A stretch of DNA of 47,207 bases, filler included, from Catajapyx aquilonaris (lineage: Eukaryota), in assembly GCA_000934665.2 (NCBI GenBank). It is 2 parts of 2 records of this genome, joined end to end, with 100 filler letters (N's around TTAATTAATTAA, not from the genome) between each part and the next. Parts side by side here need not be neighbours in the genome. Positions count along the whole stretch, not along the records: positions 23,661 to 47,207 come from JYFJ02005662.1; 1 more part is not named here. One strand, written 5' to 3'. Shown here piece by piece: positions 24,145 through 45,718 of the stretch. Positions within the stretch are counted from its first letter, which is position 1; each line of letters begins with the position of its first letter. The translations under genes and the position numbers were made by a program. The notes below the pieces were generated by a model that saw only the letters and a list, made by a program, of their open reading frames with translations, ran no database searches and had not been told where the DNA came from.

Positions 24145-24577
24145 TACAAGTGAAACACAAAGATTTCAATTTTAGCAATTTGAATTATTCATTCCACTAA
24201 TGTAGTTTCTTTAAATGCTCAGTCACCTTATATCAGGAATTGTGTACACTTTGGCAAGAGGCCCAAAGGATATGTGAATGACCTTCTCTCCTTATTGTGG
24301 AGGTGTAGTTTAGTCAGCTATGAATGTATTCAACCATGGAACATGTAGTACTGCTGTCCCAAGAGCTTTTAATTCTCAGTTGCATTAACTCAACTACTAT
24401 TCTACTGTAGTGCTAACTTCTGAAGAACTGATGGGCATTTCCAAGCAAACACAGACATATTGTCCGTTCGTTACGCAGGTTTTGTAGGCATGACTTGACC
24501 AAGTTGTAATTCCCTCATGCATAAGTTTTGCAGTCTTGAGTGAATCTGATTTTTCTTTGTAGGCTATTGGATCCAAC

Positions 24578-24883
24578 ATGCCTCGCCATATTTTCTCCGA
24601 CCTTGTGGAAGAATTGAAGATCTACATATTTTCCTTCCTGGACACTGGAGACAAGATTAGGGCTTCCCTTGTGTGCAAGGAATGGAACCGGCTCATGGAC
24701 ACCCCTTCTCTTTGGACATCTCTGGAGCTGTCAGGCAGAAGGGTCACAGACATAGAAGCTGCTAACATTGTAGCAAATAAGCGTTGCTTGAAGACTTTGG
24801 TCCTGAAGGATTTTGCCGAAGGTGGTGACCATGTGCTTCAGTGTGCTGCTGAAACCTGCACTCTCCTGGAAGTGCTGGAATTG
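24578..24883 (+). CDS. F-box/LRR (FBXL-type) protein first coding exon, copy A; no matching downstream LRR exon (partial gene or pseudogene)
   Basis: F-box motif SDLVEELKIYIFSFLDTGDKIRASLVCKEWNRLMDTPSLW; upstream acceptor TTTTCTTTGTAG; phase-0 donor TTG|GTGAGG. Confidence 0.7.
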
Positions 24884-25347
24884 GTGAGGATTGCTCTTGA
24901 ATAAAAAACTTGCTGATGGAGAATAAAGGATCATTAAGTTTCGATGATGTGTAAAGCGGCGTTTACATGTGAGCGATTTGATCCCGCAATGTCATCACCG
25001 AACGATAACAATGATGAGTAACCGGTATTGTTTAAGGCGAAAATCAATTGTTACTTTCATGTCAAACAATATTGGTTGCTTGGCATGGTGAAGACTTTGC
25101 TTGTCAGATCGCTCACATGTAAATGCACCTTAAGGGCCTTGTTACCCACAAGAGATGTAATATTATTTACCCTTGTCTTCTGACTGTAATTACCAGTGTT
25201 GTATTTTCAAAGAGCAAGCAACAAACCCTCCAAAAATGTGTACATGACTGGGAGGTTGCAGTTAGGTGCACAGTTCAATTTGTATTGATGCATCATGGAT
25301 TCATGGTAGTCCACTGAAGAGCTGTTTCATTTTTTAAATTCCATAAT

Positions 25348-25369
25348 CTTGTTGTTGTTGTTGTTGTTG

Positions 25370-25453
<84 letters not shown>

Positions 25454-25462
25454 ATTATTATA
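25348..25462. repeat. (GTT)n(ATT)n microsatellite
   Basis: Direct reading. The paralogous tract at ~44117-44236 has expanded GTT/GAT instead. Confidence 0.95.
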
Positions 25463-25479
25463 CATTATGGACTGTGCAT

Positions 25480-25815
25480 TTATATGGGAAGTCTTTTTGG
25501 AAGACTGTTAGGAGGTTAAGAACTGGCCTTGGGGTTAGGGTAGTGCGTGTGAAGGATAAGAAGGGTGACAGGCTGTGGGATGGTGAAGAGGCAAAAGGCC
25601 ATTGGGGAGAGTATTTTAAGGCTGGCAACAAGTGATTAGGCTAGTGTTGATGTATCTGTAAGCTTAATTGGGGAAGACGTACCAAGTACTGATGGTTGTG
25701 GGGATATTAGTAAGAAGGAAGTTGCAGCTGCTACTTTAGAACTTAAACTAGGTAAATCCCCTGGGGTTGATGCTATTTCTTTGGAAATAGTAAGGTGTGG
25801 CGGGGATGATGTAGG
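25480..25815 (+). mobile_element. degenerate RTE-like LINE fragment (truncated paralog of 44260-45200)
   Basis: Reads ...EVAAATLELKLGKSPGVDAISLEIVRCGG, the typical pre-RT motif K(S/A)PG.D.I..E. Confidence 0.7.
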
Positions 25816-25865
25816 GCTGTTTTGCATTGCATAGTGTAATATTTAAATTTAATATTGAGAGTTTG

Positions 25866-27006
25866 CCCAGGTAGCAAGATATATTGGGCCAATATTGGCT
25901 AAATATTGGCTTTATTGGCTACACATTGGCGATATTGCCACTGTTTAGCCAATATTGTGCCAATATAGTCGATATATCGGCAATATTGCCACTGTTTAGC
26001 CAATATTGTGGCAATATAGTCGATATATCGGCATTATTGCCACTATTTGGCCAATATAGTCGATACAGCGGCAATATTGCCACTATTTAGCCAATATAGT
26101 CGATGTATCGGCGCCACATGGGCAATATCGCCATGATTCTGCCAAGATTTGATATGTGAATTTTCCAATTTATGCTAATATATTAGCCTAGATTTGATAT
26201 GATTAATTTTCCAGTTTATGTGCCCAATTTATGCTAATATATTAGCCAAGATTTGATATGATGAATTTTCCAATTTATGCTAATATATTAGCATAAATTG
26301 GAAAATAATATATGTGTTGTTTTTTTGGCTATTGATAAAAATAATCCCACGTGAAATTCCACCACAAACTTTACCAGCTGTTTTTTTGCTACTATTTAGC
26401 CAATATAGTGGATATATCGGCGCCACATTGGCAATATTGGGTGCAATGTGGGCGGATGTGGGGCAGCTTCACGCGTCCAGATGGCGCTGACTGTCGGGGT
26501 GCCGTTGCAAGTCTTCTCCGATTTATCCCACAACAATGCGAATTATTTTCGGCCATTACTTGTGTGCAAAGGTGGCAAGAGACTCCACTGCATGCGGCTC
26601 ATTTACCCCCGAGGTACTTCATTGTGACATTAATTTGCTAGAGTCATTCGATGGCAATGCTGTTTGTTGCGAGCAGGACAATCCACGGCATGGAAAGGCC
26701 ATACAAGCGGGGCACCTCTGGACTTCTTTGAAAACCAACCAACCAACCATGAGAATAAACGAATAATAAAAAGCGAAAAAGCCACTTCCCCATCCCCAGT
26801 TAGGAAACCCATGTTGGTCCAAAACAAAGGTTTGTTACCTGAGATATATCGTATATATATTGGCCATACATTGGCTGCCAATATTGCCATATATGCCGAA
26901 AAGTTACAGTTTCCATATAGATAAATATTGGCAGCCAATGTTGGCCAATATTGGCTGCCAATAGTCAGCCAATATTGGCCCAATATATCTTGCTACCGTA
27001 CCTGGG
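25866..27006. mobile_element. non-autonomous CACTA/EnSpm-like DNA transposon with subterminal repeats
   Basis: ~35-bp TIR CCCAGGTAGCAAGATATATTGGGCCAATATTGGCT (the right copy has a 5-nt insertion); many GCCAATAT/ATATTGGC subterminal repeats; 2-bp TG duplication; empty site in the paralog at ~45995. Superfamily assignment is an inference. Confidence 0.8.
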
Positions 27007-27581
27007 TGTCATCTGAGATGGGCAGGGGTGGGGGATTATAATGGTTGTCATTGTAGTTTCATCTTTCATGTATAGTTTTGAGAATTAAAAACAGTACTTG
27101 ATGGGTAAATGCCAATGAGAGTCATTTATAATGTGGACATGTGTTGTATGTTCAGAGTGACAGGAACACCTGTAATTTTACAATCAAAAAATGTGAAACT
27201 TTTGAGGTTGGCATAGTCTCCGTCAGATGGGAGCACCTGTCCTTGAGAAGGTACGGCTATCCGCCAGTGGCGCCATCGCATCCCTCTTTAGCGGAGGGTA
27301 GGGGAACTACTTGTCTTTCAGTCTGATGGAGCTGGAGGAACAAGACCCGTTGGTGCTTGGTTGTCCTCATCGGGTGTCGTTCGAAGGATTGTCTGTTCCT
27401 TTCTTTGGTCGGGCTTGGCTCGTTGCACGGTACGGCCCGCTACCAGGTGACCCAGGTTTAGGTCTGGACAAGGGCCAGCGGCCTCGGGAGGTGCGTGGAT
27501 TGGGGGTTGGAATGATGGAATGATTGGAATCACACTTGACTTTGGTTTCGCTTTTTCAGGGCCGTGCAGAACAGGACAGCC

Positions 27582-30500
27582 ATGGACATGCTGAAATGGG
27601 GAAGATACCCCTGCCCCCACTGTCCCAACAAGATCTTCAGGAGGAGGCTTGACCTGCTGGCACACAACACCACCCATTCGAAGTGGGACAGGGTTAAAGT
27701 GGAGGTCCTGGTCACAGTCAGGTTCGAGGAGGAAGGAAGAGGAGGTCAGGATGCCCTGGGGGTCAGGAGGGTCGAGGAGCCAAGGGAGGGCAACTCTGGC
27801 CAGGAAGGTGACCTCAGTGGGGCAGCAGAGGAGGAGGAGGGCAGAAGGAGGCATGAGTCAGACACTGCTCCTCCAGCCGGGGAGGAGGAGGAGGAAGACG
27901 ACGGAAGAGGAGATGCAGGGAGGCCTAATCAGGTGAGAAGAAGAGTGCACATGGGTCGCATTGGTGCATGGGGTAAATAACTCGTCAAGTCCGTTGTACG
28001 GTTGGCCCCAAGTCCGACCAAGTCCGACCAAATCCGGGCTCAAGTCCGCCAAGTCCGACCAAGTCCGGCTCGTTACAAGTCCGTTGTACACTCAACTACC
28101 GAGTGATTTACCCCTTGCATTGGTGGCACCCTGAGCCAATGAAGGCAAAAGAGCTAATCAAAGGGATGAATTTGCATCCAGTGCATCACATCTCTTCGAT
28201 TTGTTCTTTTGCCACCGTATGGCTCATGGCGCTACCAGTATGACACCCTTAATGTCCAGCACTGCACATGAGGATCAGGAGTTTGTGGAGAAAATGGTTT
28301 GGTCTGAACAACGAATTGGCATAATTGGGTGTATTGGGTTCCACGAAATATGCACATGTATGTGGAAAATGCAGTCAATTTACAGTTTACTGTAATCGGA
28401 GGTTACTGGATGCTGATGGGAACCACTGTTTAACCTGTTGTAATTATTGTATGAGCCGAAGGTTACTTATCCCGGATTAAGCTGTCAATTAGTTACGTGT
28501 TAGGCCGCAGCTATGTTTGGAGATTCCTTCGAGTTTCCCTACTCGCCGCTAGAGGGATACGAGATTTTGCTATGATGTCTTATGAAATCGATTTTATTAG
28601 AAACTAGCTGCGGCACCCGGCGTTGCCCGGGAAGAAATGAATGAAGGGAAAGCACCTTCCGGTACCCCCGTCAACTGTCTGTCTTTCCGTGTGTCCGCCC
28701 ACCAATGCCATCTGTGATCCTGCTACTCCAACACCTTCAACCTCTCCCGCTGGCAACCGTCATTTGCCTGCCATCTGTAGTCAACCCCCAACACCTCCAT
28801 CCTCTCCCGGCCTGGGGGTGGAACACAGATGGCAGGCAAATGACGGTTGGCAGGCGGACAGACAGACAGACTCACAAACTCCTTTATTTATACAGATTTA
28901 ACACTAGTGGTGCATTTTCTACCACAACTGACCACATATTTGGAATATAGAGACTTTCTTGATCTCGGGAGCCCCCAACAACATGCAAAATATCGGAATC
29001 ATCCCTTTGATTGTAACAGTAAAACTTCTAAAAGTCGAACTTCCCTAACTCGAAGTTCTCCATAACTCGAAGTGCTGGCAGGGCCTTACGATGGGATATC
29101 AATGCACTTTCAGTCTCCCTAAGTCGAAGTTCATGTTGGCGAGTACAGAAAATTTTCTCATTCCCCAGCCGAAGGGTCGAGAGTAGGCCACATGTACAGA
29201 AAGGCTCAATTTCTTGATTTCCGTCTACCAGACGTACCGAAAGAAGTGTTTGACTCGATTGTGACAATTGCATCCTTAAGTCTAAGAGTAGGCAAATGTC
29301 CATAATGGAGATTTTTTTTGCAACAAAACAATGAGGAACATTGTAAGTGTGATAGTGACAGTTATTTTTAAGTTAGGAACACCTTTCGTCGCTGGATATA
29401 AAGATAGGCTTCCTTATAAAGTTCTATGGTTTAAAAAATCCAAATTTCTCTAACTCGAATCTTCTATAACTCGAAGTTTTTTCCCGGTCCTATGGGGATT
29501 CGACTTATAGAAGTTTTACTGTATTTATATTATTTGGAGGTTTTCTGCTAATTTCCTGGGAGTTTTTCTAGCCAAATCTGGGTTACCTGGGCTTTTTGGC
29601 AAAAGAGAGAGCAGCAGCTTAATCCCTGCCTCATAGGGAAAGTTGTGATGATGATGATGATGTAATTAGACAGCTAGTTAATTATGTCTTGTGATGCAAA
29701 CAAGTGGTATTTCCTGTGACACTGATTACTCGGTAATTGTTAATTATAATATGTCAAGTCAGTTTCTTGGGTTCTCATTGCAGATGCTGGAGCCCTTCAT
29801 CCTGCTGTACCAGCTTCTCTACTGTGCCCATTGCAACGGTGCATTTGCCACAAAGAAGCACCTGGAGACGCACATGCTCAAGAAGCACATCACTCCTGAG
29901 CCTCAGGTAATACAGTAAATACAGTGTGTGTATTATTTATTGATAGGGTGACCTGCATAGAGAGGTATGTTTTAAGCAGATTTAGTTATATGAGGTAGAC
30001 AGCCAGATAGCCATAGTTGCTTTGGCTTCTTCCTAATAAACCAAACCAAGCCATCACTCCTGGAACATAGCCAGGGTGAAAACAGTTGGCACCTACCATG
30101 TATGTATTTTTTTCACCATAAATCAGTGTTATACAGGGTGTAAAAATGAATTCGGTGGACAAACTTGTAGGGGTAATAGAGGGGACCTGGACATATATTT
30201 TTGACATAGAAAACCATGTCCTGAAATGCCGTCTAGAGGGGGTTCATAGGCAAGGAACGGGTTGGCTCAGACGCGTCACGCAGGAGGCGCTAGGTGAGCG
30301 GACTGTTTTGTTGATATTTTATTTTATTTATTTATTTTTATTTTTATTTTTATTTTTATTTACACCCTTGAGGCCTTCTGGCCTATGTAGGGGGGAGATT
30401 TTTCCACCATTTTCTGACTTTCCAGTGCTGGGATAGAGGGGGGGGGGGGCAGTGGTGCAAGTGCAATGTCTCTTGGTGGAGGTCGTGTGCAGTCCCTCAG

Positions 30501-33500
30501 AGGGCTAGGTTGACAAGACGACCCTCTAGATGCGGATCAGAGACCTTCCACAAACGCCGCACCTCCTCCAGTATGGGACACTGAAAGGAAAGGCGGGAAG
30601 CGGCTGTGGCCTACTAATTTAGGAAACAACTCCGGTATTCACCTGGGGTGACCGTGGGAAACCACAGAAAACCACGGTCAGGGTTGCCGGCCTGGGGATT
30701 CGATCCGTGGACCTCCCGATTCGCAGCCAAATCCCCTCGGCTACTGCTGCTTCGGTCTGTTTTGTTGATATATGGTGCTCGGATAGTAACCAACGATGCG
30801 ATGTGTCATAACGACGATAACATGGCAACAACAGAGCCGTCTAGCAACTAAAGTCCTCCTCCTAGGAGACGCGCGGATAGTCAACCACGGTTCTGTTGTT
30901 GCCAGGTTATGGTGTATCGCGTCGTTGTAAGCAAACAACAGCGCGATATGCCATAACCTGGCAACAACTGGGCGCCATCTATCAACAAAACAGTCCGCTC
31001 GACTAGCGCCTCTCGCCTGACGCGTTTGAGAGCACCCCCGTTCCTTGTCTATGAACCCCCTCTAGATGGCGTTTCCGGACATGGGTTCCTATGTCAAAAA
31101 TACTTGTATTGGTTCCCTCTATTACCCCTGAAAGTCTTTGCAGAGTTACAATAAACACCCTGTATATCTTGAGGAGGCACTCGGGCTGAAATGTGAGGCA
31201 GGCAACAATGCAGGCAACAATATTACCTCCGTCCAGATGGCGGATGCCTGACATTATTGAACTAATTGTCGTCCCAGTTGTCATTATCGGTTGTTGTCCC
31301 AGTTGCTAGACAACTACTGTTAGAACAACAACATTACCTCTGACAAGATGGCGGCTGCCTCAGCCTGTCTAATGGAAAAGGCTAAGGGAGTACCTCCTCT
31401 AGGTATTATATTATATAATAGCAGAACTCTTTGGTGTTTACTAGCCGAGCGCCATCTATCAACAAAACAATCTGCTCGCCTAGCGCCTCTTGCGTGACAC
31501 GACTAAGCGCACCTGTTCCTTGTCTATGAACCCCCTCTAGAGGGCGTTTCCGGACATGTCTATGTCAAAAATATTTGTCTTGGTCCCGTCTATTACTCCT
31601 ACAAGTTTGTCCAATGAATTCATTTTTACACTCTGTATTTGCCATATTCTGTAAATCTAATTATGCAGAAACACACCAGTGTCCATCGTATTGGTCACTT
31701 GTCTCATTTGATGAAGAGAATTTGTGTTAACCAATGGAAATAGGACCAGTGACAGAGTATATTAAAGCAGAACTCTTTGGCAAAACTTGTTGAGAACGTC
31801 AAAAGAAAGTGTTGGGGCGACTGAAACCAGTGTTTTGATCATCTAATACAAACACTGCAGAGTTCCATGGACGTTCATAGTAGGGGGGAGTTATGAGCAG
31901 TTACATAGAAAAACGTGAGAGCATGCGAGTAGAAGCAGTAGAGGTTGGGAATTTCTGTTCATACTATAATTGGGTTTTTTAATAATTCAAAAGGTATTGG
32001 TATGTTGAGGTGGGAAAATGCATATTTACCAGGCAATGCAAAGCAAAGGTGGGATTGCAGATGGTCCTGCAGATTGCAGGGATCACTGATATGTGAATGC
32101 ACGGAGGAACGGGTGGGAGTGTATGCATATGAATGCGGGATGGGCATCATCATTGGCTATAAGCCCGAAGCGATTAAAAATATGGTAGGCAGAATATGGT
32201 AGGAAAAAGCGAGTGAAGAGAGTGGGTTTCTATGCTTGCGCCATAGAAAAATGCTAGTGTAGCGAGGGTTTTTCTCGTATGACCAGGGAGCATAATTATA
32301 CTACATAAGAGGCGCAAACATTCGATTTTCGCGTCTCTCTGTTTGGGGCGTTGCCAAGGCTGGCGGCCATTTTGAAGTGTGTGCAACGCCAACGAGGTAT
32401 AAATAGATCACATGCAAAAATAGGGTCCGCCATCTTTCACTCGCGCGTGTTCTCGCCGTGTAGTTGCCATGGCCGCCAAAACCATCAAAGATGGCGGACC
32501 CTATTTTTGCCTGTACCATATTTATACCTCGTTGTCGTTACCCACACTTCAAAATGGCCGCCAGCCTTGGCAACGGGCCCAAACAGAGAGACGCGAACAT
32601 CAAAGGCGCCGACAGAAGTTTGCGCCGCTTATGTAGTATAATTATGCTCCCTGGTATGACAATAATATGACAAGTTGGTAAATGGTAATTGGCGTTCCTA
32701 GGTGATGGCAACATGTGAAAATGGGGTAATGAGGGAAAAAATAAGGGGAAAAAAATCATTACTCCTATCCTCTAGCGAAGGGAACTGTGAGGTTTTGAAC
32801 ACTGATCCACACCGTCCGGTTGCACCATGGTTGTAGAAGACTCAGGTTAGGTCACTCCCCACCCACCCCCTGCCGAGGGGTTTTGCAGCGGGCGCTCACC
32901 TGAGAACGCCACGAGACATTTCCCAGAGCATTTATGTGGTGACCCTACCGGATTAAGGCTGAACTTGATAGGAACGAAAGGGAAGCGCTACATGCTGGCC
33001 CAACATGGCCGCCGGGTAGCCACATAAATGCTCTGGGAAATGTCTCGTGGCGGTATCAGGTGAGCACCCGCTGCAAAACCCCTCGGCAGGTGATAAGCCC
33101 AGAAGATAGGGGTAGTGTCCGTGGGCTGGGTTGCACATTCAGCCATTTGACGAAGAGACCGATTTCCTAATAGTTATTGACAAAAACAAACAAACACAAC
33201 AACAACAACAACAACAACGAGAGAGAGAGGGGGGGGGGGGGGGGGGGANGAAAATCGCATTTTTACTCGTTTTTAATTTTTTGAGGAGTACCCTAGAGGA
33301 ATTCGGCAAAAGTGTAAATGGTGGGAATGCACTTCATGACGGTCGGGGCCTGTGTTCAAATTTTCGAAGCTCTTCCAACCTGCAGCGAAATTTGAGTTAG
33401 GGTGAATAAAAACGTAACAACAAGAACAACAAGATGTTGGAAAAATTCATTGTTGAAATGGCATATTCGGTCTTACATTATGCTGGGCTACCGCCCTTAA

Positions 33501-36497
33501 AATAATTATGACCTTCACTTCCTTATACTGGTTTTTCGTAAGGGATCTTGTTCCTGAAGCTGGTGCCCCATACACTGACCGCCATGTATACAGGGTGTTT
33601 ATTGTAACTCTGCAAAGATTTTCAGGGGTAATTAAATAGAGCGGACCAGGCCTATGACACTCCTCGAATACGGTAGGTTAACACCTGTGTCCTGGCCAGA
33701 CGGCGCTGGTGGCGGATGTCCCTCCATTGTCTGCCGCCATCTTGAAGACCCATTCCGGTGGCTGGCAAGTCAATCTGCCTACGGGTGAGTGCCAAAAAAA
33801 AATATGCCGAAAAATAAGTACGGTACTGCTCAGTACTGCTAGCTATCTTTAGTCATGTCTAAATAAAATAAATAGTGCACTTACAATATGCTCTTTTACA
33901 ATCACCTCCTGCTCGCTTGACATTTTGGTGTGTCCAGGTCCAGAATGCCTTCTGCACATTTACCGAGCATTGCAAGTGTACTATTTATTTTATTTGGACA
34001 TGACTAAAGATAGCTAGCAGTACCGAGCAGTACCGTACTTGGCATATTTTTTTTTGGCACCCACCCGTAGGCAGATTGACTTGCCAGCCACCGGAATGGG
34101 TCTTCAAGATTGCGGCAGACAATGGAGGGACCACTGGAGGGATCCGCCACCAGCGCCGTCTGGCCAAGACACAGTTATTAACCTACCGTCACCATACATG
34201 TAGGCGGGCTGTGTCAGGGGGCTGGAGGGGACCAAGACAAGTATTTTTGACATAGGAACCCATGTCCGGAAACGCCATCTTGAGAGAGTTCATAGACAAG
34301 GAACGGGTGCGCTCAGACGCGTCACGCGAGAGGCGCTAGATTTGTTGATAGATGGCGCGCAGTTGTTGCCAGGTTATGGCATGCCATATCGCATCGTTGT
34401 AAGTAAACAACAGCGCGATACGCCCATACGCCATAACCTGGCAACAACAGAACCGGTGTTGACTATCCGCGCGTCTCCTAGGAGGCGGACTTTAGTTGCT
34501 AGATGGCTCTGTTGTTGCCACGTTATGGCACATCGCATCGTTGGTTACTATCCGAGCGCCATTTATCAACGAAACAGTCCGCTCGCCTAGTGCCTCCCGC
34601 GTGACGCGTCTGAGCGCACCCGTTCCTTGTCTATGAACCCCCTCTAGATGGCGTTTCCTGACACGGGTTCCTATGTCAAAAATACTTGCCTTGGCCCCCT
34701 CTATTATCCCTGAAAGTCTTCGCAGAGTTACAATAAACACCCTGTATAATATTGTATGGCAAGAGGGAGACACGGTGGCCGAGTGGTTAGCGCCACAGCC
34801 TTCCGCCTCTAAGGTCCCGAGTTCGATCCCCGGATCGGACAGAGGATGTTTATGTGGATAGAGTTTCGATGGGTTCTCTCCGTGTTCGCATGGGTTTTCT
34901 CGGGGTTCTCCCGTTTCCTCCCACTATCAAAAATCCATCACAGCAAATGCAATGATTAAACATTAAAGTCGGTCACTTAAAAAGATGATCCCCTAAAAAG
35001 CCCAAGGAGGCTTATCACGGGGTATCCATTATTATATTGTATGGCAAGCATACAGAGTCCGACACTCTCCTTTAAAATACATTTCGATCTGCATTTATGA
35101 GATATCATTAATTTCAGGTAGAAGGTGTCGAAGAGAGGATGCAGAAAGGAATCCAGCAAGACATGAAGAAAAGGAGACACTTGGTGGGGAATGGTTGTCA
35201 GATTTGCATGAGGACATTTAGTTGTAAGAGTAATTTGAATAAGCACATGCGAACCCACACAGGGGAGAAGCCGTATTGTTGCAAGGTTTGCAAGAAGAAG
35301 TTTAGTCAATCAGGAGATTTTAATACACACATGCAAACCCACATAGGGGAGAAGCCATATTGTTGCAAGGTTTGCAAGAAGAAGTTTAGTCAATCTGGAA
35401 ATTTGAATCAGCACATGCGAACCCACACAGGGGAAAAGCCACATTGTTGCAAGGTTTGCAAGAAGAAGTTTAGTCACTCAGGAAATTTGAATAAGCACAT
35501 GCGAACCCACACAGGGGAGAAGCCGTATTGTTGCAAGGTTTGCAAGAAGAAGTTTAGTCGATCAGGAGATTTGAATACACACATGCAAACCCACATAGGG
35601 GAGAAGCCATATTGTTGCAAGGTTTGCAAGAAGAAGTTTAGTCAATCAGGAAATTTGAATCTGCACATGCGAACCCACACAGGGGAAAAGCCATATTGTT
35701 GCAAGGTTTGCAAGAAGAAGTTTAGTCAATCAGGAAGTTTGTATCTGCACATGCGAACCCACACAGGGGAGAAGCCATATTGTTGTAAGGTTTGCAAGAA
35801 GAAGTTTAGTGTATCAGGAAGTTTGAATCTGCACATGCTAACCCACACAGGGGAGAAGCCACATTGTTGCGAATTTTGCAAAAAGAAGTTTAGTACATCC
35901 GGGCAATTGAATGCGCACATGCGAACCCACACAGGGGAGAAGCCATATTGTTGCAAGGTTTGCAAAAAGAAGTTTAGACTATCAGGACAATTGAATGCGC
36001 ACATGCGAACCCACACAGGGGAGAAGCCATATTGTTGCAAGGTTTGCAAGAAGAAGTTTAGTCGATCAGGAATTTTGAATGCGCACATGCGAACCCACAC
36101 AGGGGAGAAGCCATATTGGTGCAAGGTTTGCAAGAAGAAGTTTAGTGAGTCAGGAAATTTGAATATGCACATGCGAACCCACACAGGGGAGAAGCCATAT
36201 TGTTGCAAAGTTTGCAAGAAGAAGTTTAGTCGATCAGATGATTTGAATAGGCACATGCGAACCCACACAGGGGAGAAGCCATATAGTTGCAAGGTTTGCA
36301 ATAAGAAGTTTAGTGAGTCAGGAAGTTTGAATCTGCACATGCGAACTCACACAGGGGTGAAGCCATATTGTTGCAAGGTTTGCAAGAAGAAGTTTAGTCA
36401 ATCAGGAAGTTTGAATACGCACATGCGAACCCACACAGGGGTAAACCCATTCAGCGTGAGGTTTGCAAGAGAGAATTTAGTAACGAAAGCTCTCTGA
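27582..36497 (+). CDS. multi-exon C2H2 zinc-finger protein; exons 27582-27932, 29784-29906, 35118-36497; about 17 fingers in frame, with 3 further fingers lost to a frameshift
   Basis: Start in GCCATGG context. Exon 1 has the finger [24 protein letters not shown] plus an acidic region; exon 2 has [23 protein letters not shown]; exon 3 has 15 fingers with TGEKPY linkers. All junctions are CAG|GT...CAG| in phase 0. The array exon is certain; linkage of the upstream exons is inferred. Confidence 0.8.
27967..28117. mobile_element. hAT-type MITE (151 bp)
   Basis: Perfect 8-bp TSD CATTGGTG; TIR CA(T/A)GGGGTAAAT(A/C)ACTCG; internal CAAGTCCG repeats. Confidence 0.85.
28604..28896 (-). mobile_element. 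non-autonomous Helitron
   Basis: On the minus strand: 5' A|TC, (GTCT)n near the 5' end, and a 3' GC hairpin CCCGGGCAACGCCGGG followed by CTAG|T. Confidence 0.85.
29017..29521. mobile_element. pogo/Tigger-like MITE
   Basis: TIR CAGTAAAACTTCTA(A/T)AAGTCGAA, subterminal TAACTCGAAG repeats, TA at the right flank. Confidence 0.75.
30134..31635. mobile_element. composite/nested Tc1-mariner-type MITE
   Basis: TA|CAGGGTGTAAAAATGAATT ... AATTCATTTTTACACTCTG|TA. Contains the right end of a related element at 31162 (AATAAACACCCTG|TA) and a SINE. Confidence 0.75.
30318..30756 (-). mobile_element. tRNA-derived SINE
   Basis: Minus-strand A-box-like TAGCCGAGGGG and B-box-like GATCGAATCC; central GTTTTCTGTGGTTTCCC...AGGCCACAGCCGCTTCC domain resembling hemimetabolous-insect SINEs; A-rich tail; 15-bp TSD CTGTTTTGTTGATAT (30303-30317, 30757-30771). 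Confidence 0.8.
32284..32653. mobile_element. palindromic MITE, P-element-like
   Basis: CAGGGAGCATAATTATACTACATAAG ... CTTATGTAGTATAATTATGCTCCCTG with ~150-bp arms; 7-bp TSD GTATGAC. Confidence 0.8.
32869..33090. repeat. inverted repeat, ~77-bp arms
   Basis: CCTGCCGAGGGGTTTTGCAGCGGG...CATTTATGTGG (32869-32945) versus its reverse complement at 33014-33090; no TSD seen. Confidence 0.85.
33591..34744. mobile_element. Tc1-mariner-type MITE carrying a nested fold-back element
   Basis: TA|CAGGGTGTTTATTGTAACTCTGC ... GCAGAGTTACAATAAACACCCTG|TA; body homologous to 30134-31635. Confidence 0.8.
33670..34189. mobile_element. fold-back element with ~210-bp inverted arms
   Basis: ACGGTAGGTTAA...CCAGACGGCGCTGGTGGCGGAT versus ATCCGCCACCAGCGCCGTCTGG...TTAACCTACCGT. 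Confidence 0.75.
34764..35033 (+). mobile_element. tRNA-derived SINE with V-domain-like core
   Basis: A box TGGCCGAGTGG, B box GTTCGATCC; core GTTCTCTCCGTGTTCGCATGGGTTTTCTCGGGGTTCTCCCGTTTCCTCCCAC; 3' stem-loop and (ATT)n; 15-bp TSD ATATTGTATGGCAAG. Confidence 0.85.
35236..36440 (+). repeat. 84-bp coding minisatellite (14 near-identical zinc-finger units)
   Basis: Unit CACATGCGAACCCACACAGGGGAGAAGCCATATTGTTGCAAGGTTTGCAAGAAGAAGTTTAGTnnnTCAGGAnnnTTGAATnnn repeated with 84-bp period. Confidence 0.97.
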
Positions 36498-36955
36498 AAT
36501 TCTACATGAGGATTCATTCAGGAGCAAAACCATACAGTTGCCTCATTTGCAAGAGGATGTTTAGGCGCACATCAAATCTGTTGTCTCACATGATAGCTCA
36601 CACAGGTGAGAAGCCACATGGTTGCCATATTTGCAGCGAAAGGTTCATTAGGCCAGGACTGCTGAAAAAGCATGTTAAAGTCCGTTTACTGAAAGAATGA
36701 ACACACGTCACAGTTGACGTCACGATTTTTTATGCATGGACTTGTGCGCCCCGTGTGACGTCACGCAGGCATGCCACCGCAAACCGTAAACAGTAGTGAC
36801 GCGTTACCAACGGATTTCCCAACCCGCAAGGTTGGCACTAGCTACGGAAGATCAGGGGGGGAGGAAGGAGTTGCAGTGGGGTTGGGGCGGGCAACTGTGA
36901 CGTGTGTTCATTCTTTCAGTAAACGGACTTTAGAACACACACAGGAGAAAAGTGA
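36456..36955 (+). pseudogene. out-of-frame, MITE-interrupted C-terminal zinc fingers of the ZF gene
   Basis: Adding one T after 36455 restores [36 protein letters not shown]...-TGEKPHGCHICSERF. Removing 36678-36930 plus one TA restores KHVRTHTGEK* (TGA at 36953-36955). Confidence 0.8.
36678..36930. mobile_element. MITE inserted in the last zinc finger
   Basis: Perfect 39-bp TIR AAGTCCGTTTACTGAAAGAATGAACACACGTCACAGTTG; TA duplication; removal restores the coding frame. Confidence 0.9.
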
Positions 36956-37099
36956 TTTGTGTTTTACGTGTAAGTGACCTGCATTCTTGAAGGCCATGCA
37001 GTTAGTCAACTTACCTACACACTCCATGTTCGCTAGTGTCAGTTTTTATGATGGGCTCTGAGGGCATCATTGATGAAGGTGGATGAAGGATTAAGAGGA

Positions 37100-37585
37100 A
37101 TCCCACCAAAAACCTTTCTGTAAAAAAAAGGCCAAGTTCTGACTGCTTGGCCGTCAAAAGTGGTGAGATCTGAAATACGGCCAAGTTCAATGTCGTTGTC
37201 AATTACTGGCATTCTCAACTTCTTCAACCTAAACCACTAACTTTATTTTTCCAGGTTGACCTTTAGTTTAATAATCAAAAAATTTTAATGGAATTTCTCC
37301 TGATGTCACTTGGCCATTGCTATTAAAACATTGAAAGAGTTGTAGAATTCAACAATACTTCGGACATGATCAATGGCCAAGGGACATCACGAGAAATTAC
37401 ATTAAATTTTTTTGATTATTAAACTTAAGGTCGACCTGGAAAAATAAAGTTAGTGGTTTAGGTTGAAGAAGTTGAGAATGCCAGTAATTGACAACGACGT
37501 TGAACTATTTCAGATCTCACCACTTTTGATGGCCAAGCAGTCAGGAGAACTTGGCCTTTTTTTACAAAAAGGTTTTTGGTGGGAT
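37100..37585. repeat. long inverted repeat (~220-bp arms, ~50-bp spacer)
   Basis: ATCCCACCAAAAACCTTT...TTGGCCATTG versus CAATGGCCAA...AAAGGTTTTTGGTGGGAT; the two mirrored ORFs starting MKKLRMPVIDND reflect this. Confidence 0.92.
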
Positions 37586-37869
37586 CTCACCTCTTTTTGT
37601 AGGCAGGAGTGTATAAATTATAAGGAAGTTCGGGGTGCCCCCTATACGGTAGGGCGTGGAAGCAATGGTCCGTATGTAAAACTTTTTTTTCTTTTTCTTT
37701 TTTCTTTTCGCTATCTTTTCTTCTGATTTGGTATGATCGCTCTTGGTATGATTTTCTTCTGCTTTCTCATAGTACGCTTCCTTTCTTTCTGTTCTGGTTG
37801 TGCGAATTGGACATCTGCTACACCTCATCGCATAGCCCATTCGCGATCCTTAACCACTCCTGTCGACGC

Positions 37870-38153
37870 CTTATTAGCCCTTTTGAGCATGGATAAGTCT
37901 GGTCGGTAAATAGATCTCAATCTATCGTACTCCAGAATAGCTGACTCTTGAGCCTTGATGTTAGTAAAGGAGGCATTGATGAGATGCACTCCGTTGAGAC
38001 TTGACCGCACGAAGAGACAGAGGAACCAATGTCGATGAGTTCATTAGTGAGACTAAAGCCTTGGCTCTTGTGTACCGTAATGGCATACGCCACCACAAAT
38101 TGGGAATATTATAGTTCCCTGTACACATAGGCTCTATTGATGACCTCGAATTT
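37870..38153 (-). mobile_element. degenerate Helitron/Helentron Pif1-like helicase fragment
   Basis: The minus strand translates, with stops and frameshifts, to KFEVINRAYVYRE..AYAITVHKSQGFSLTNELIDIGSSV..CGQ/SLNGVHLIN..IKAQESAILEYDRLRSIYRPDL. AYAITVHKSQG (38058-38090) is the SF1B helicase motif; the YVALSR motif is deleted. Confidence 0.8.
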
Positions 38154-38322
38154 TGTATTTGTATTTGTCTTAAATATTTGTATTTGTTACACGCTTTATA
38201 TTAGCTTCACTGCGAGTGATGTCTGTCTGCACTTGTAGCGCGTTCGCTTTAGTTGTCACATCGCTCCTTCCATGCGGTTCGCCTTCCCACACCATCTAAC
38301 GGTGGGTATTCACATTAGGGGT

Positions 38323-38444
38323 CACTTTCGCCACCTCAACACCAGATGGCGGTAGTAGTCGCTACTTCCACACTTTCGCCACCTCAACGCCAGATGGCGG
38401 TAGTAGTGGCTACTTCCACACTTTCGCCACCTCAACGCCAGATA
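38323..38444. repeat. 48-bp tandem repeat, ~2.5 copies
   Basis: CACTTTCGCCACCTCAAC(A/G)CCAGATGGCGGTAGTAGT(C/G)GCTACTTCCA. Confidence 0.9.
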
Positions 38445-38602
38445 TATACACGCTTTATATTACCTTCACTTTGTCTGTGAGCAGATTTGTCTGTTTGTCG
38501 CTTTGTGAAAAGATTACAAATCAGTCTGCTGGCACCATTCACCTTACTCCCCATGTACTATCCATCTGTCATTCCTTCCACTTTATCACTAAAAACAAGT
38601 TA

Positions 38603-42274: not shown

Positions 42275-44115
42275 TAATAAGTGATTGTTAAGATATCTAC
42301 TGGGTGTGCCACAAGTCTAGAACCACAGGAGCTTCCTATTACATAACGTAGGTTATGGATATGTTTTTTTCTTTTCTTTTTTTCTTTTCTTTCTTTGTTA
42401 TACCCCTTGCTAGAGCCCTAGGGCCTCTTAGGGAGCGGAATACCACCATTTGTGCAGGGGACAGGATATGGAACTGCTATGGTTCCAGACTTATTGAGGG
42501 ACACCCTGTAGAAACATATCGTAACTAATTTCAAATAAGCAGCGTAGCGCCAGTTAGTCCATCTAGTGGGACAAATGTTTCAGATCATACTGTAATATGC
42601 AGAAGTGGAAAGTACGCAACCTTGGGAGGTTTGGTGTGATGTTATATCATTATTGTTATGTATGTACTAGTGATGGCAAGTTCAAGTAAATCTCATGACT
42701 TCATGTGTCTGAATACAGCGATGTATCTCCTGATCAAATTAAAGTCATGCAAGTAGCCACCTGCAATGCAATTATTGCCATGGTAACCACCCACCAGAAT
42801 GACTTGGAACAAATTGGCACAGAGGGTCTCTCCAGGTAGCTACAGTACACCAAGTGTGAGATGCTGTGACAGCACTAGTCATTGTGTAGATGATGGAGCA
42901 TTTTCAGGTCACAAAATATTGTTGGCATACAAGTGAAACACAAAGATTTCAATTTTAGCAATTTGAATTATTCATTCCACTAATGTAGTTTCTTTAAATG
43001 CTCAGTCACCTTATATCAGGAATTGTGTACACTTTGGCAAGAGGCCCAAAGGATATGTGAATGACCTTCTCTCCTTATTGTGGAGTGTGTATTTTAGTCA
43101 GCTATGAATGTATTCAACCATGGAACATGTAGTACTGCTGCCCCAAGAGCTTTTAATTGTCAGTTGCATTAACTCGACTACTGTACTACTGTAGTGCTAA
43201 CTTCTGAAGTACTGATGGGCATTTCCACGCAAACAGAGAGATATTGTCAGTTCGTTAACGCAGGTTTTGTAGGCATGACTTGACCAAGTTGTAATTCCCT
43301 CATGCATAAGTTTTGCAGTCTTGAGTGCATCTGATTTTTCTTTGTAGGCTATTGGATCCAACATGCCTCCCTGTACTCTTTCCGACCTTGTGGAGGAGTT
43401 GAAGATCTACATATTTTCCTTCCTGGACACTGGAGACAAGATTAGGGCTTCCCTTGTGTGCAAGGAATGGAACCGGCTCATGGACACCCCTTCTCTTTGG
43501 ACATCTCTGGAGCTGTCAGGCAGAAGGGTCACAGACATAGAAGCTGCTAACATTGTAGCAAATAAGCCTTGCTTGAAGACTTTGGTCCTGAAGGATTTTG
43601 CCGAAGGTGGTGACCATGTGCTTCAGTGTGCTGCTGAAACCTGCACTCTCCTGGAAGTGCTGGAAATGGTGAGGATTCCTCTTTTTAAAAAAAACTTGCT
43701 GATGGAGAATAAAGGATCATTAAGTTTTGATGATATGTAAAGCGGCGTTTACATGTGAGCGATTTGATCCCGCAATGTCATCACTGTACGATAACAATGC
43801 TGAGTAACCGGTATTGTTTGAGGCGAAAATCAATTGTTACTTTCACGTCAAACAATATTGGTTGCTTGGCTTGGCGACGACTGCTCGTCAGATCGCTCAC
43901 ATGTAAATGCACCTTAAGGGCCTTGTTACCCACAAGAGATGTAATATTATTTACCCTTGTCTTCTGACTGTAATTACCAGTTTTGTATTTTCAAAGAGCA
44001 AGCAACAAACCCTCCAAAAATGTGTACATGACCGGGAGGTTGCAGTTGTTCCATTTTTATTGATGCATCATGGTAGTCAACTGAAGAGCTGTTTCATTTT
44101 TTAAATTCCATAATC

Positions 44116-44177
<62 letters not shown>

Positions 44178-44259
44178 GATGATGATGATGATGCTGATTA
44201 TTATTATTGTTATTGTTATTATTATTATTATTATTGTACATTATGCACTGTGCACTTAT

Positions 44260-45200
44260 GGGAAGTCTTTTTGGGAGACTGATAGGACGTTATAAGAACT
44301 GGCCATGGAGTTAGCGTAGTGGGTGTGAAGGATAAGAAGGGTGACATGCCGTGGGATGGTGAAGACTGAAGAGGCGAAAGGCCGTTAGAGTATTTTAAGG
44401 ACTTGCTGTCAGCAAGTGATAGGCTAGTGTTGCTGTATCTGTAAGCTTAATTGGGGATGATGTACCAAGTAATGGTGGTTGTGGGGATATTAGTAAGAAG
44501 GAAGTTGCAGCTGCTGCTTAGGAACTTAAACTGGGTAAATCCTCTGGGGTTGATGCTATTTCTTCAGAAATGGTGAGGTGTGGCTGGGATGATGTAGTTA
44601 CTTTTTTGACTAATTTATGTAGGGTTTCTTTTGAGAATGATGGAGTTCCTAGGGATTGGAGGGATGCTATTATAGTACCTCTGTATAAGGGTAAGGGATC
44701 GAGATTGTGTGTGACTGCAAGAATTATCGTGGCATTAGTTTGTTAAGTGTACCAGGAAAGGTGTATGCTAAGGTTTTGATAGAAAGAGTTAAGAGGGTCA
44801 CAAGTCAGAGAATACTGAATATTCAGAGTGGGTTTATGACGGGTAAGAGTTGTGTAGATCAGATATTCTGTATGAGACTCGTGGTAGAAAAGTATTTAGC
44901 TGTAAACGAGAAGGTTTATGTTGCCTTTGTAGACTTAGAGAAAGCATATGACACAGTAAGTAAGCGGAAAGTTTGTGGGAAGTTCTGGGTCTCTATGGAG
45001 TGAAGGGTCGCCTGCTGGAGGCTGTAAAGTCATTGTTTGAAGAGAGTAGAGCTTGTGTTAGAACTAGTGGGGGTTTCTCTAACTGGTTTAACATCAGTGT
45101 CGGGGTTAAGCAGGGTTGTGTCATGTCTCCTTGGTTATTTAACTTGTACTTATATGCATGTGTAAGGGAAGCAATGATTGAAGGTGTAGGAGTGCAGTGG
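44260..45200 (+). mobile_element. degenerate RTE-like non-LTR retrotransposon, reverse transcriptase fragment
   Basis: NYRGISLLSVPGKVYAKVL, QSGFMTGKSCVDQIF, AFVDLEKAYDTV, GVKQGCVMSPWLFNLY; frameshifted. Confidence 0.92.
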
Positions 45201-45718
45201 GTCAGTGTCTTAAGCGTGTTGCTAGTGTTAAGCCGAGACGTTCATGTGTCAATAGGACCATGGACGTGGCTAAGGCTAAGGTTGTTTGTTTGTTTGGATA
45301 GGTGTAAATGGCGTAGGTTAATTAATGGGTAGAATATTCACGGGTTTGTGAGGAATGGCAGTGTCCATTGAATTCTTCCGAATGGCTAGAATGTTTGCAG
45401 GTTGGTGCGGAGGAGTTGGCGTCTGGAAGTTCATACTCGGGCTCTGGTTGCTGTGCAGAACTACAAGTTTGGCAAATATCTCTTGCACAGTAATGCATAG
45501 GTTGACACCGGTAGGCCTAGTCATGCTTGTAAGGGTGTCTGCCTCTTTCTGCCCTGCACAGCGCTTGGAGTTCAGGTGTGGATTTCCATATGCTGGTTCT
45601 TCTCGCTGGCCTGTGGGTGTTCTAGTCGTTTGGAGGAGCATATTCTAGTCACATTGGAGGAATTTAACAGTTGCTGATTCCTCTTCCGGGGGGGTCGGGG
45701 GTGGGGGTGGGGGGAGAC

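Follow-up and report, generated by a model that had tools for sequence, protein, structure and literature searches.

The question raised by this locus is whether a zinc-finger minisatellite in the genome of Catajapyx aquilonaris (assembly GCA_000934665.2), called PRDM9-like in a sequence-only reading, really joins a homogenised framework to diversified DNA-contacting residues, and, if so, what kind of gene carries it. Positions below refer to the window, i.e., the whole stretch of 47,207 nucleotides that was analysed. Judged from its sequence, the array is real, young, concertedly evolving and under diversifying selection; its function we infer, and recent pseudogenisation is a possibility weighed below. 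We consider it moderately probable that the locus is a lineage-restricted poly-C2H2 zinc-finger gene, whose central 14 fingers form a young coding tandem array.

Tandem Repeats Finder (TRF) placed an 84-bp tandem array at 35232-36441 (14.4 copies, 89% matches, 0% indels, score 1895), which bears out the interval 35236-36440 proposed earlier. The array is spanned by a stop-free frame of the plus strand (35112-36497, 461 codons), within which the predicted array exon (35118..36497, plus strand; acceptor aatttcag/GTA, phase 0) encodes an edge finger, 14 homogenised fingers and a 20-codon out-of-frame tail that ends in a stop; an internal ATG at 35139 (plus strand) is an alternative start. These 15 fingers are in register and follow the pattern C-x2-C-x12-H-x3-H. 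The Pfam scan of the exon returned no families but those of the C2H2 type (zf-H2C2_2 at E 8.7e-122 and zf-C2H2 at E 1.2e-76, each passing its curated cut-off), and with its tandem fingers (PF00096 / PF13465) and TGEKP-type linkers it is a C2H2 poly-zinc-finger sequence, while the array itself, made of many head-to-tail, in-frame units of tens of bp, is a coding minisatellite. On its left the repeat begins (35232, the TRF start) within the helix of the edge finger, finger 0 (35196..35258, plus strand): identity of the 84-nt unit of this finger to the array consensus is 51% over the first 57 nt and 96% over the last 27 nt. The edge finger is followed by the 14 units of 84 bp (35259..36434, plus strand), which are in register and each consist of a linker and a finger. 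Zinc ligands are intact, four of four, in every one of the 14 units (60/60 over the 15 in-frame fingers). All of the 14 triplets listed earlier for helix positions -1/+3/+6 (QDT to QST) are found in the translation, no two of them alike, and positions +1, +2 and +5 are nearly fixed, as had been said (S at +1 in 14/14 units, G at +2 in 13/14, N at +5 in 13/14). The length of the array is known from one assembly.

As to the beginning of the gene, the "two lone fingers plus acidic stretch" of the sequence-only reading are present as two candidate exons, the splice phases of which fit the array exon. Candidate exon A (27560..27932, plus strand; acceptor tttttcag/G, ATG at 27582, 117 codons, donor CAG/GTGAGA in phase 0) encodes one lone C2H2 finger (CPHC...HNTTH) followed by an acidic glycine-rich tail (D and E make up 23 of the final 72 residues). 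Candidate exon B (29784..29906, plus strand; 41 codons, acceptor ttgcag, donor CAG/GTAATA) encodes a second lone finger (CAHC...HMLKKH), the Pfam C2H2 match of which is weak (E 9.7e-5, below the curated cut-off). Phase 0 is shared by the end of exon A, both ends of exon B and the start of the array exon, and the splice sites are consensus-like, a chance phase match having a probability of about 1 in 3 per junction and the joins of A, B and the array exon being predictions from sequence. Probably, the N-terminus consists of these two short exons and bears no known effector domain. By database searches the candidate upstream exons are orphans: exon A matched no Pfam family, had a single match at E <= 0.001 among 1.84 billion representatives (a Sparganum hypothetical protein, over the finger only), and its Atlas neighbours possess C2H2 features only. 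The absence of visible KRAB and SET, claimed earlier, also agrees with our Pfam scans of the array exon, exons A and B and 74 plus-strand ORFs of at least 40 aa (25000-35139), which returned no match to SET, KRAB, SSXRD, ZAD, BTB or SCAN within 10 kb upstream. Pfam contains no model for FiNZ, so the absence of this domain was judged only from exon A having no relatives. An F-box exon 1 (24578-24883) was considered as an upstream partner and rejected, as its phase-0 donor fits the array exon but not the coding frame of exon A.

Both putative introns, the last one of 5.2 kb and the other of 1.9 kb, are filled with repeats, and part of the last one is polymorphic. This putative last intron contains a nested repeat/TE cluster (33551..35029, strand not assigned; inverted repeats I2-I6). 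In three DNA runs of one sample (X1, X2 and X3), one contig per run carries 44 other letters in place of the cluster, joining 33550 to 35030 and skipping 1479 positions. A tRNA-like stretch lies at about 34770-34840; ARAGORN detected no tRNA gene in the window. One more contig, from the small run X5 (188 nt, depth 7.8), fits 35114-35220 and continues with 81 letters foreign to the region, which is a weak hint; its break lies 4 nt from the predicted acceptor, and the ending of both candidate upstream exons in TCAG would account for the 4-nt overlap.

The opposite end of the gene is damaged, a fact that the sequence-only reading did not mention: a 1-bp frameshift just past unit 14 severs three older fingers. 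Comparison of 36435-36500 with unit 14 places the missing base within about 36441-36452, in a transition unit (36435..36517, plus strand) which is one base shorter than the array unit and hence shifts the frame. In the second frame, an ORF at 36398-36700 with a Pfam zf-C2H2 match in 36398-36697, the finger of this unit is degenerate, its first Cys being changed to Arg and its first His to Tyr. The next older finger (CLICKRMFRRTSNLLSHMIAH; 36539..36601, plus strand) is intact, out of frame with the array and 40-44% identical in amino acids to the array fingers. The last one (CHICSERFIRPGLLKKH...; 36623..36957, plus strand) is split before its second His by a 253-bp MITE (36678..36930, strand not assigned), so that its remainder and the stop codon are found at 36933-36957. 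The MITE has perfect 41-nt terminal inverted repeats (arms 36676-36716 and 36892-36932, 100% complementary) and TA at both flanks (36676-36677 and 36931-36932). A small intron that could rescue the frame was sought and rejected, since the donor 36440/36441 yields, with the downstream AG sites, either a wrong phase or an impossibly short intron. In the assembly, the three ancestral C-terminal fingers are cut off by the frameshift and the MITE, and the product, if made, would end just past finger 15.

The frameshift together with the MITE inside the last finger makes a recent loss of function a live alternative, in which the locus would by now be a pseudogene, its array preserving a fossil signature of past selection; the loss of the first Cys and the first His from the finger next to unit 14 and the repeat-filled introns, the last of them partly polymorphic, also speak for it. 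We regard it as unlikely, for the 461-codon frame is open, all 60 ligands are in place, no indels have occurred among the 14 units, and a protein short of its terminal fingers may still function. Moreover, pN/pS of the framework is 0.30, and the chance that neutral evolution would have produced no stop and no ligand loss, given a minimum of 24 framework mutations, is 0.008. Purifying selection, as shown by comparison of the units, keeps the zinc ligands, the hydrophobic core and the TGEKP-type linkers of the predicted protein.

As for the likeness of the units, a 252-bp block has been duplicated, units 1-3 being the same as units 4-6 except for 10 nt, six of which are in contact codons, and identity between units is flat (0.88-0.90) across all unit offsets. 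Together with the repeat boundary inside finger 0, these features speak for recent exchange. Alignment of the units shows concerted evolution: recurrent unequal exchange or gene conversion maintains their likeness. The statement that the fingers are almost identical, synonymous sites included, was somewhat generous, since at synonymous sites the framework has a diversity of 0.13 per site.

Variation between the 14 units is gathered at the codons for the base-contacting residues. Codons -1/+3/+6, which are three of the 28, account for 51.9% of the pairwise nucleotide differences and rank first among 3276 codon triples; all of their nine nucleotides are variable versus 20 of the other 75 (Fisher p = 2.7e-5), and divergence per site is 0.504 at contact nucleotides versus 0.056 elsewhere. 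The excess persists after removal of CpG-context columns (0.488 over 5 contact columns, 0.045 over 67 others). This concentration of variation at contact sites is far beyond chance. Calculated over positions -1, +2, +3 and +6, the diversity proportion is 0.522 in the 14 units, or 0.460 when all 15 fingers are counted, with a mean amino-acid identity between array fingers of 0.82; the contact-site share of the array is exceeded by only one of 204 comparator ZNFs, the median of which is 0.25.

Such a pattern might also be expected of an ordinary transcription factor with a recently expanded array, if its contact positions vary merely through weaker constraint. Base-contacting residues are reported as the most variable C2H2 positions in most of the animals surveyed (Wells et al., 2023, PMC10547256), and when the contact codons are taken by themselves their pN/pS is no more than 1.9, calculated on some two synonymous sites. 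However, nonsynonymous diversity at contact codons (pN 0.56) is about fourfold above synonymous diversity of the framework (pS 0.13; framework pN 0.039), and relaxed constraint cannot exceed the neutral rate, so the excess counts against this explanation; besides, unit pairs with one framework difference can differ at up to six of nine contact nucleotides, as units 10 and 11 do (1/75 framework nt and 6/9 contact nt). We hold the ordinary factor to be decidedly improbable. The comparison of units shows positions -1/+3/+6 to be changing, by these diversity estimates, several times faster than synonymous sites, and contact positions outpacing synonymous ones indicate diversifying selection on DNA specificity. 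It should be kept in mind that dN/dS between repeat units breaks tree assumptions under gene conversion, as Baker et al. (PMC5519329) point out.

Mis-assembly of the repeat, or merging of several paralogues, could in principle have produced the array length, the unit order or the frameshift. Short-read contigs of X1, X2, X3 and X5 on 26500-38500 are mostly repeat noise, yet each of those overlapping position 35209 (5, 6, 6 and 1, respectively) reads A against a T in the window; in one X2 contig, 36163 is linked to 36930 by 11 foreign letters, suggesting that near-copies exist elsewhere; and short runs of N and single Ns occur elsewhere in the window. There are, however, no Ns in 35000-37000, the 14 units are all distinct, in perfect 84-bp register and free of indels, and mis-assembly cannot create the contact-site pattern. 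An artefact seems very improbable to us.

The comparison with PRDM9 has two sides. The combination of homogenised framework and diversified contacts noted at the outset is real and, quantitatively, PRDM9-like: the minisatellites of PRDM9 in vertebrates and cnidarians (Oliver et al., 2009, PMC2779102; PMC5519329) also consist of DNA-homogenised 84-bp units with diversity at -1/+3/+6, the share of 0.52 lies inside the range listed for complete PRDM9 in Table 1 of Baker et al. (2017, PMC5519329; 0.33-1.0, with about 0.16-0.33 for SET-only forms), and further points of likeness are the divergent edge finger and the signs of block duplication. The array gene differs in that KRAB, SSXRD and PR/SET were not detected and its 3' end is damaged, and also in its host. 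The best 120 matches listed for a CDK12 exon in the window are all CDK12 proteins, the named ones being nearly all from insects and Daphnia (62-84% identity); this exon indirectly supports the arthropod assignment of the genome, and the host lineage looks pancrustacean, a group from which, as from chelicerates, Prdm7/9 is reported lost (PMC4760075). The predicted array gene is not a PRDM9 family member. That it might nonetheless be a functional analogue, i.e., a meiotic hotspot-positioning or chromosome-recognition factor of a PRDM9-less lineage acting through a partner rather than its own SET, seems to us very improbable: its contact-site share and the reported loss of Prdm7/9 would suit such a role, but PR/SET, KRAB and SSXRD are absent from the candidate exons and the 74 upstream plus-strand ORFs, and in vertebrates a fast-evolving array accompanies the complete PRDM9 domain set (PMC5519329).

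Other zinc-finger families resemble the array gene in part. Numbers of poly-ZNF genes track retroelements across metazoa (PMC10547256). The KRAB-ZNF genes of tetrapods and the FiNZ-ZNF genes of cyprinids, lineage-specific families that target TEs, share with our locus a long C2H2 array, positive selection at base-contacting residues and a TE-rich setting; FiNZ and KRAB are glutamate-rich, and the candidate N-terminus is acidic. Unlike them, however, the array gene has no KRAB or FiNZ-like conserved domain, its N-terminal exon being an orphan, and KRAB-ZNF and FiNZ-ZNF diversify mainly between paralogous genes, whereas here diversification is between the fingers of one array. The ZAD-ZNF genes (PMC7913770, PMC12947871) are an arthropod C2H2 family with lineage-specific expansion and fast evolution, in which they resemble the locus, but ZAD (PF07776) had no match in any of the sequences scanned (array exon, candidate exons and upstream ORFs). 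Finally, the ZNF fragment P0246 from an ENA contig (241 aa) also has near-identical fingers whose differences fall at helix positions, with a contact-site share of 0.86 and a finger identity of 0.87; it differs in having only four complete in-register fingers, being cut at the contig end, and is 45% identical to the array protein.

A collection of 5.8 billion proteins yielded neither the array protein itself nor any close relative, and no orthologue, paralogue or allele was seen among the scored candidates. Of the 8000 candidates scored in the near-length search, 7922 reached E <= 0.001, with a best identity of 62%, and of the 8000 scored among shorter proteins 7291 did so, with a best identity of 65%; all of them are generic ZNFs. 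The exact 51-nt framework pattern had no matches in metagenome contigs, and the window contains no paralogue cluster of the array gene. These searches thus yielded no orthologue by which conservation could be shown, which counts against the main reading.

Returning to the lineage-restricted gene with a young coding array, we think that its product is probably a quickly retargeting DNA-binding protein. It would be a sequence-specific DNA binder, the target of which could be quickly rewritten via point changes or via gain, loss or shuffling of fingers, and the array would work like that of PRDM9. As in the KRAB-ZNF and FiNZ-ZNF genes, the likeliest driver may be conflict with DNA that changes fast, e.g., transposons or satellites. 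Going further, one may speculate, and we find it rather doubtful, that a PRDM9-less arthropod lineage independently evolved a single-gene "Red Queen" array with allele turnover, in which a SET-less coding minisatellite with an orphan N-terminus (two lone fingers and an acidic tail) has its target rewritten within one gene and not by gene duplication; engaged in a lasting conflict with satellites, transposons or a meiotic driver, such an array could, like PRDM9, give rise to incompatibilities between populations.

Hotspot-directing PRDM9 genes are picked out by concerted evolution together with diversification of contact sites in one and the same array, and the literature pairing "coding minisatellite" with "zinc finger" is, among the matches listed, nearly all PRDM9 or hotspot work. 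The significance of our finding is bounded by its being one locus in one assembly with a damaged 3' end, and by a few non-PRDM9 ZNFs that rank as high in some vertebrates in the table of Baker et al. (PMC5519329). If true, it would be a clear non-PRDM case in an arthropod-type genome, which would make this mode of evolution independent of the hotspot-erosion mechanism of PRDM9 and would provide a tractable locus for other drivers, be they transposons, satellites or meiotic drive.

The array is a run of 84-bp C2H2 zinc-finger units enclosed by a stop-free plus-strand frame of 461 codons (35112-36497), in which C2H2 families alone were matched in Pfam and which contains 15 canonical C-x2-C-x12-H-x3-H fingers at a spacing of exactly 28 codons. 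Tandem Repeats Finder reported a period of 84 bp and 14.4 copies at 35232-36441 (89% matches, 0 indels, score 1895). Cut into its 14 in-register units (35259-36434), the array yielded all the helix triplets -1/+3/+6 listed in the sequence-only reading, and the 14 are all distinct. The exon carrying it has a predicted phase 0 acceptor at 35117|35118 and an ATG of its own at 35139. On the left, the repeat starts within the helix of the edge finger, which precedes the units on the 5' side: the first 57 nt of the edge-finger unit are 51% identical to the array consensus, the last 27 nt 96%. Units 1-3 are repeated as units 4-6, the two 252-bp blocks showing 10 differences, of which six fall in contact codons; inter-unit identity stays flat (0.88-0.90) at every offset from 1 to 7 units, which means that the whole array is homogenised. 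The block repeat, the flat identity and the boundary inside the edge finger are the expected anatomy of minisatellite unequal exchange or conversion. We favor, with somewhat better than even confidence, the view that this poly-ZNF array is genuine and young, evolves in concert and is subject to diversifying selection at the residues that read DNA.

The sequence-only reading described the array correctly, but left the damage at its 3' end unmentioned. In comparison with the unit, one base is missing directly after unit 14; from there the array frame continues for 20 further codons to a stop at 36497, and three older fingers, 40-44% identical to the array fingers, lie in another frame (ORF 36398-36700). 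In the first, the first Cys and the first His are gone; the second (36539-36601, plus strand) is intact; the third and last is split ahead of its second His by a MITE of 253 bp (36678-36930), whose 41-nt inverted repeats are perfect and which is flanked by TA at either end. Contigs of the sequencing runs X2 and X5 match this MITE elsewhere, hence its family is multi-copy and probably recently active. The ancestral gene was thus composed of the edge finger, an expanding middle and three terminal fingers, the latter being lost to the predicted protein in the assembly. Reading of the sequence found no small intron that would rescue the 3' frame. That the gene died recently is the foremost alternative, and in our estimation an unlikely one. 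Each of the 14 units retains its four zinc ligands, and the neutral chance of no stop and no ligand loss, given a minimum of 24 framework mutations, is 0.008; the array framework is constrained.

As to the diversity itself, nucleotide values are 0.50 at -1, 0.45 at +3 and 0.56 at +6, and do not exceed 0.14 at any other codon. In the per-codon comparison of aligned units that had been proposed as a check, these three codons rank first among 3276 codon triples and account for 51.9% of pairwise differences. All 9 contact-codon nucleotides are variable versus 20 of the 75 others (Fisher p = 2.7e-5), per-site divergence being 0.504 at contact codons versus 0.056 elsewhere; unit pairs whose frameworks nearly coincide still diverge strongly at the contact codons, units 10 and 11, for instance, differing at 1 of 75 framework and 6 of 9 contact nucleotides. 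The sequence-only reading had named CpG or mutation bias as something to account for; the excess persists when every column with a CpG context in any unit is dropped (0.488 in 5 contact columns versus 0.045 in the remaining 67), so this bias does not explain it. Relaxed constraint instead of positive selection appears doubtful: contact-codon nonsynonymous diversity (0.56) is about four times the framework synonymous diversity (0.13) and framework pN/pS is 0.30, these unit-to-unit comparisons being distinct from a formal dN/dS test, since gene conversion violates the single-tree assumption (as stated by Baker et al., PMC5519329).

An assembly artefact, in which the array would not exist as assembled, is very improbable. 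Parts of the locus were found only in DNA contigs from a single sample (X1-X4) and in those of X5, a small run of unspecified kind; contigs from four runs aligned to the locus mostly as repeat noise. In one contig each of X1, X2 and X3, 44 other letters stand in place of 33551-35029, a nested inverted-repeat/TE cluster of the putative intron that lies immediately upstream of the array exon. This indicates, though does not prove, that an insertion is polymorphic here or that there is a second haplotype. At 35209 every overlapping contig (5, 6, 6, and 1 in X1, X2, X3, and X5) has A versus T in the window; A would turn the edge-finger Met into Lys, and either the T is an error or only the assembled individual has it. 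Given 5-6 contigs per run over this site, several near-copies or alleles of the region seem to exist, short of proof. One X2 contig, linking 36163 to 36930 via 11 other letters, seems to come from a paralogue whose end lacks the MITE.

One X5 contig matches 35114-35220 and continues with 81 letters absent from the window, breaking 4 nt from the predicted array-exon acceptor. If this contig were spliced cDNA, the 4-nt overlap would be explained by TCAG, the last four letters of both candidate upstream exons, although this is no proof. The "two lone fingers plus an acidic stretch" of the sequence-only reading are present as these candidates: exon A (27560-27932, plus strand; ATG 27582, 117 codons, donor CAG|GTGAGA) encodes one finger and a tail with 23 D+E in 72 residues, and exon B (29784-29906, plus strand, 41 codons) one finger. 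The exon A donor, both ends of exon B and the array-exon acceptor are all in phase 0, so that a gene model A-B-array may be inferred, which reads through. Exon A is an orphan by similarity search: among 1.84 billion representatives its single match with E <= 0.001, to its finger portion only, is a cestode hypothetical protein, and its neighbours in the Atlas are C2H2-like only.

Several other features share the window. A 1.7-kb segmental duplication (24145-25814 and 42928-44597, 91.8% identity) contains exon 1 of an F-box gene; its upstream copy, 5' of the zinc-finger gene, has an ATG at 24578 and a phase 0 donor at 24883|24884 that would fit the array exon, and no LRR-type exon follows it. 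A reverse-transcriptase fragment (44964-45332, plus strand; weak RVT_1 match, E 0.0011) lies within the intron of the F-box gene downstream. A tRNA-like stretch of very high contig depth (GGTGGCCGAGTGGTTAG... GTTCGATCCCCGG) occurs at 34770-34960 and at about 30650-30730 and is probably a tRNA-derived SINE; ARAGORN called no tRNA gene at either place. A short way downstream of the gene is a large foldback (37184-37506 and 37100-37585; 136-nt arms, 95% complementarity, nested in further inverted repeats), the very high contig depth of which marks a high-copy element. A DUF4808 ORF (4170-4661, plus strand; Pfam E 2.6e-25) is followed by a proline-rich stretch broken by a single N.

The likeness to PRDM9 was evaluated with the statistic of Baker et al., the share of the amino-acid diversity that lies at DNA-contacting positions (-1, +2, +3, and +6, confirmed by a 2026 preprint). 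It equals 0.522 for the 14 units and 0.460 for 15 fingers with the edge finger included, and the PRDM9-like signature claimed earlier thus falls inside the range of complete KRAB-SSXRD-SET PRDM9 (0.33-1.0; about 0.16-0.33 in SET-only forms; Table 1 in PMC5519329). The median is 0.25 for 204 comparator ZNFs, a biased set picked via query word-sharing (204 of the 240 listed homology matches, with at least 4 in-register fingers). Only one of them, P0246, exceeds the array, at 0.86, the next best reaching 0.46. P0246, from an ENA contig (241 aa), is a homogenised array with fingers 87% identical and 86% of its diversity at contact positions, and has just 4 complete fingers before the contig end. 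In some species a few non-PRDM9 genes outrank PRDM9, which is 9th and 11th of 510 in salmon (PMC5519329), so the signature is rare, yet not PRDM9-exclusive. The mode of working of the array is like that of PRDM9, whereas by the test of KRAB, SSXRD and SET domains, none of which was found, the gene stands outside PRDM9. As the sequence-only reading had it for KRAB and SET, Pfam scans of the array exon and of 74 plus-strand ORFs of at least 40 aa at 25000-35139 revealed no SET, KRAB, SSXRD, ZAD, BTB, or SCAN domain; the only upstream matches were one sub-threshold C2H2 and two sub-threshold ones at chance level. A PRDM9-like meiotic role exerted via a partner is the least probable explanation of all.

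The CDK12 orthologue exons (20705-22953, minus strand) bear on the taxon, the kinase C-terminal exon being the one with insect CDK12 best matches. The listed best matches of the exon at 22603-22953 are all CDK12 proteins, the named ones nearly all from insects and Daphnia (62-84% identity), which makes the earlier designation "arthropod" reasonable and the host lineage probably pancrustacean. According to Vervoort et al. (PMC4760075), pancrustaceans and chelicerates each lost Prdm7/9 independently. The collection of 5.8 billion proteins contains no close relative of the array protein; its best matches are generic ZNFs with at most 62% identity among proteins of near-equal length and 65% among shorter ones. 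Among the listed papers on "coding minisatellite" and "zinc finger" nearly all concern, by title or abstract, PRDM9 or hotspots. We found no prior description of an arthropod-type genome in which, as here, a non-PRDM gene carries a PRDM9-mode array, and listings and abstracts showed no arthropod cases of such arrays, while supplements, including the file 3B of high-ranking ZNFs of Baker et al., may hold comparable ones.

Diversifying selection at the DNA-reading residues would make the array a putative quickly retargetable DNA binder. By analogy with KRAB- and FiNZ-ZNFs (PMC10547256), the most plausible driver of its evolution would be conflict with transposons or satellites.
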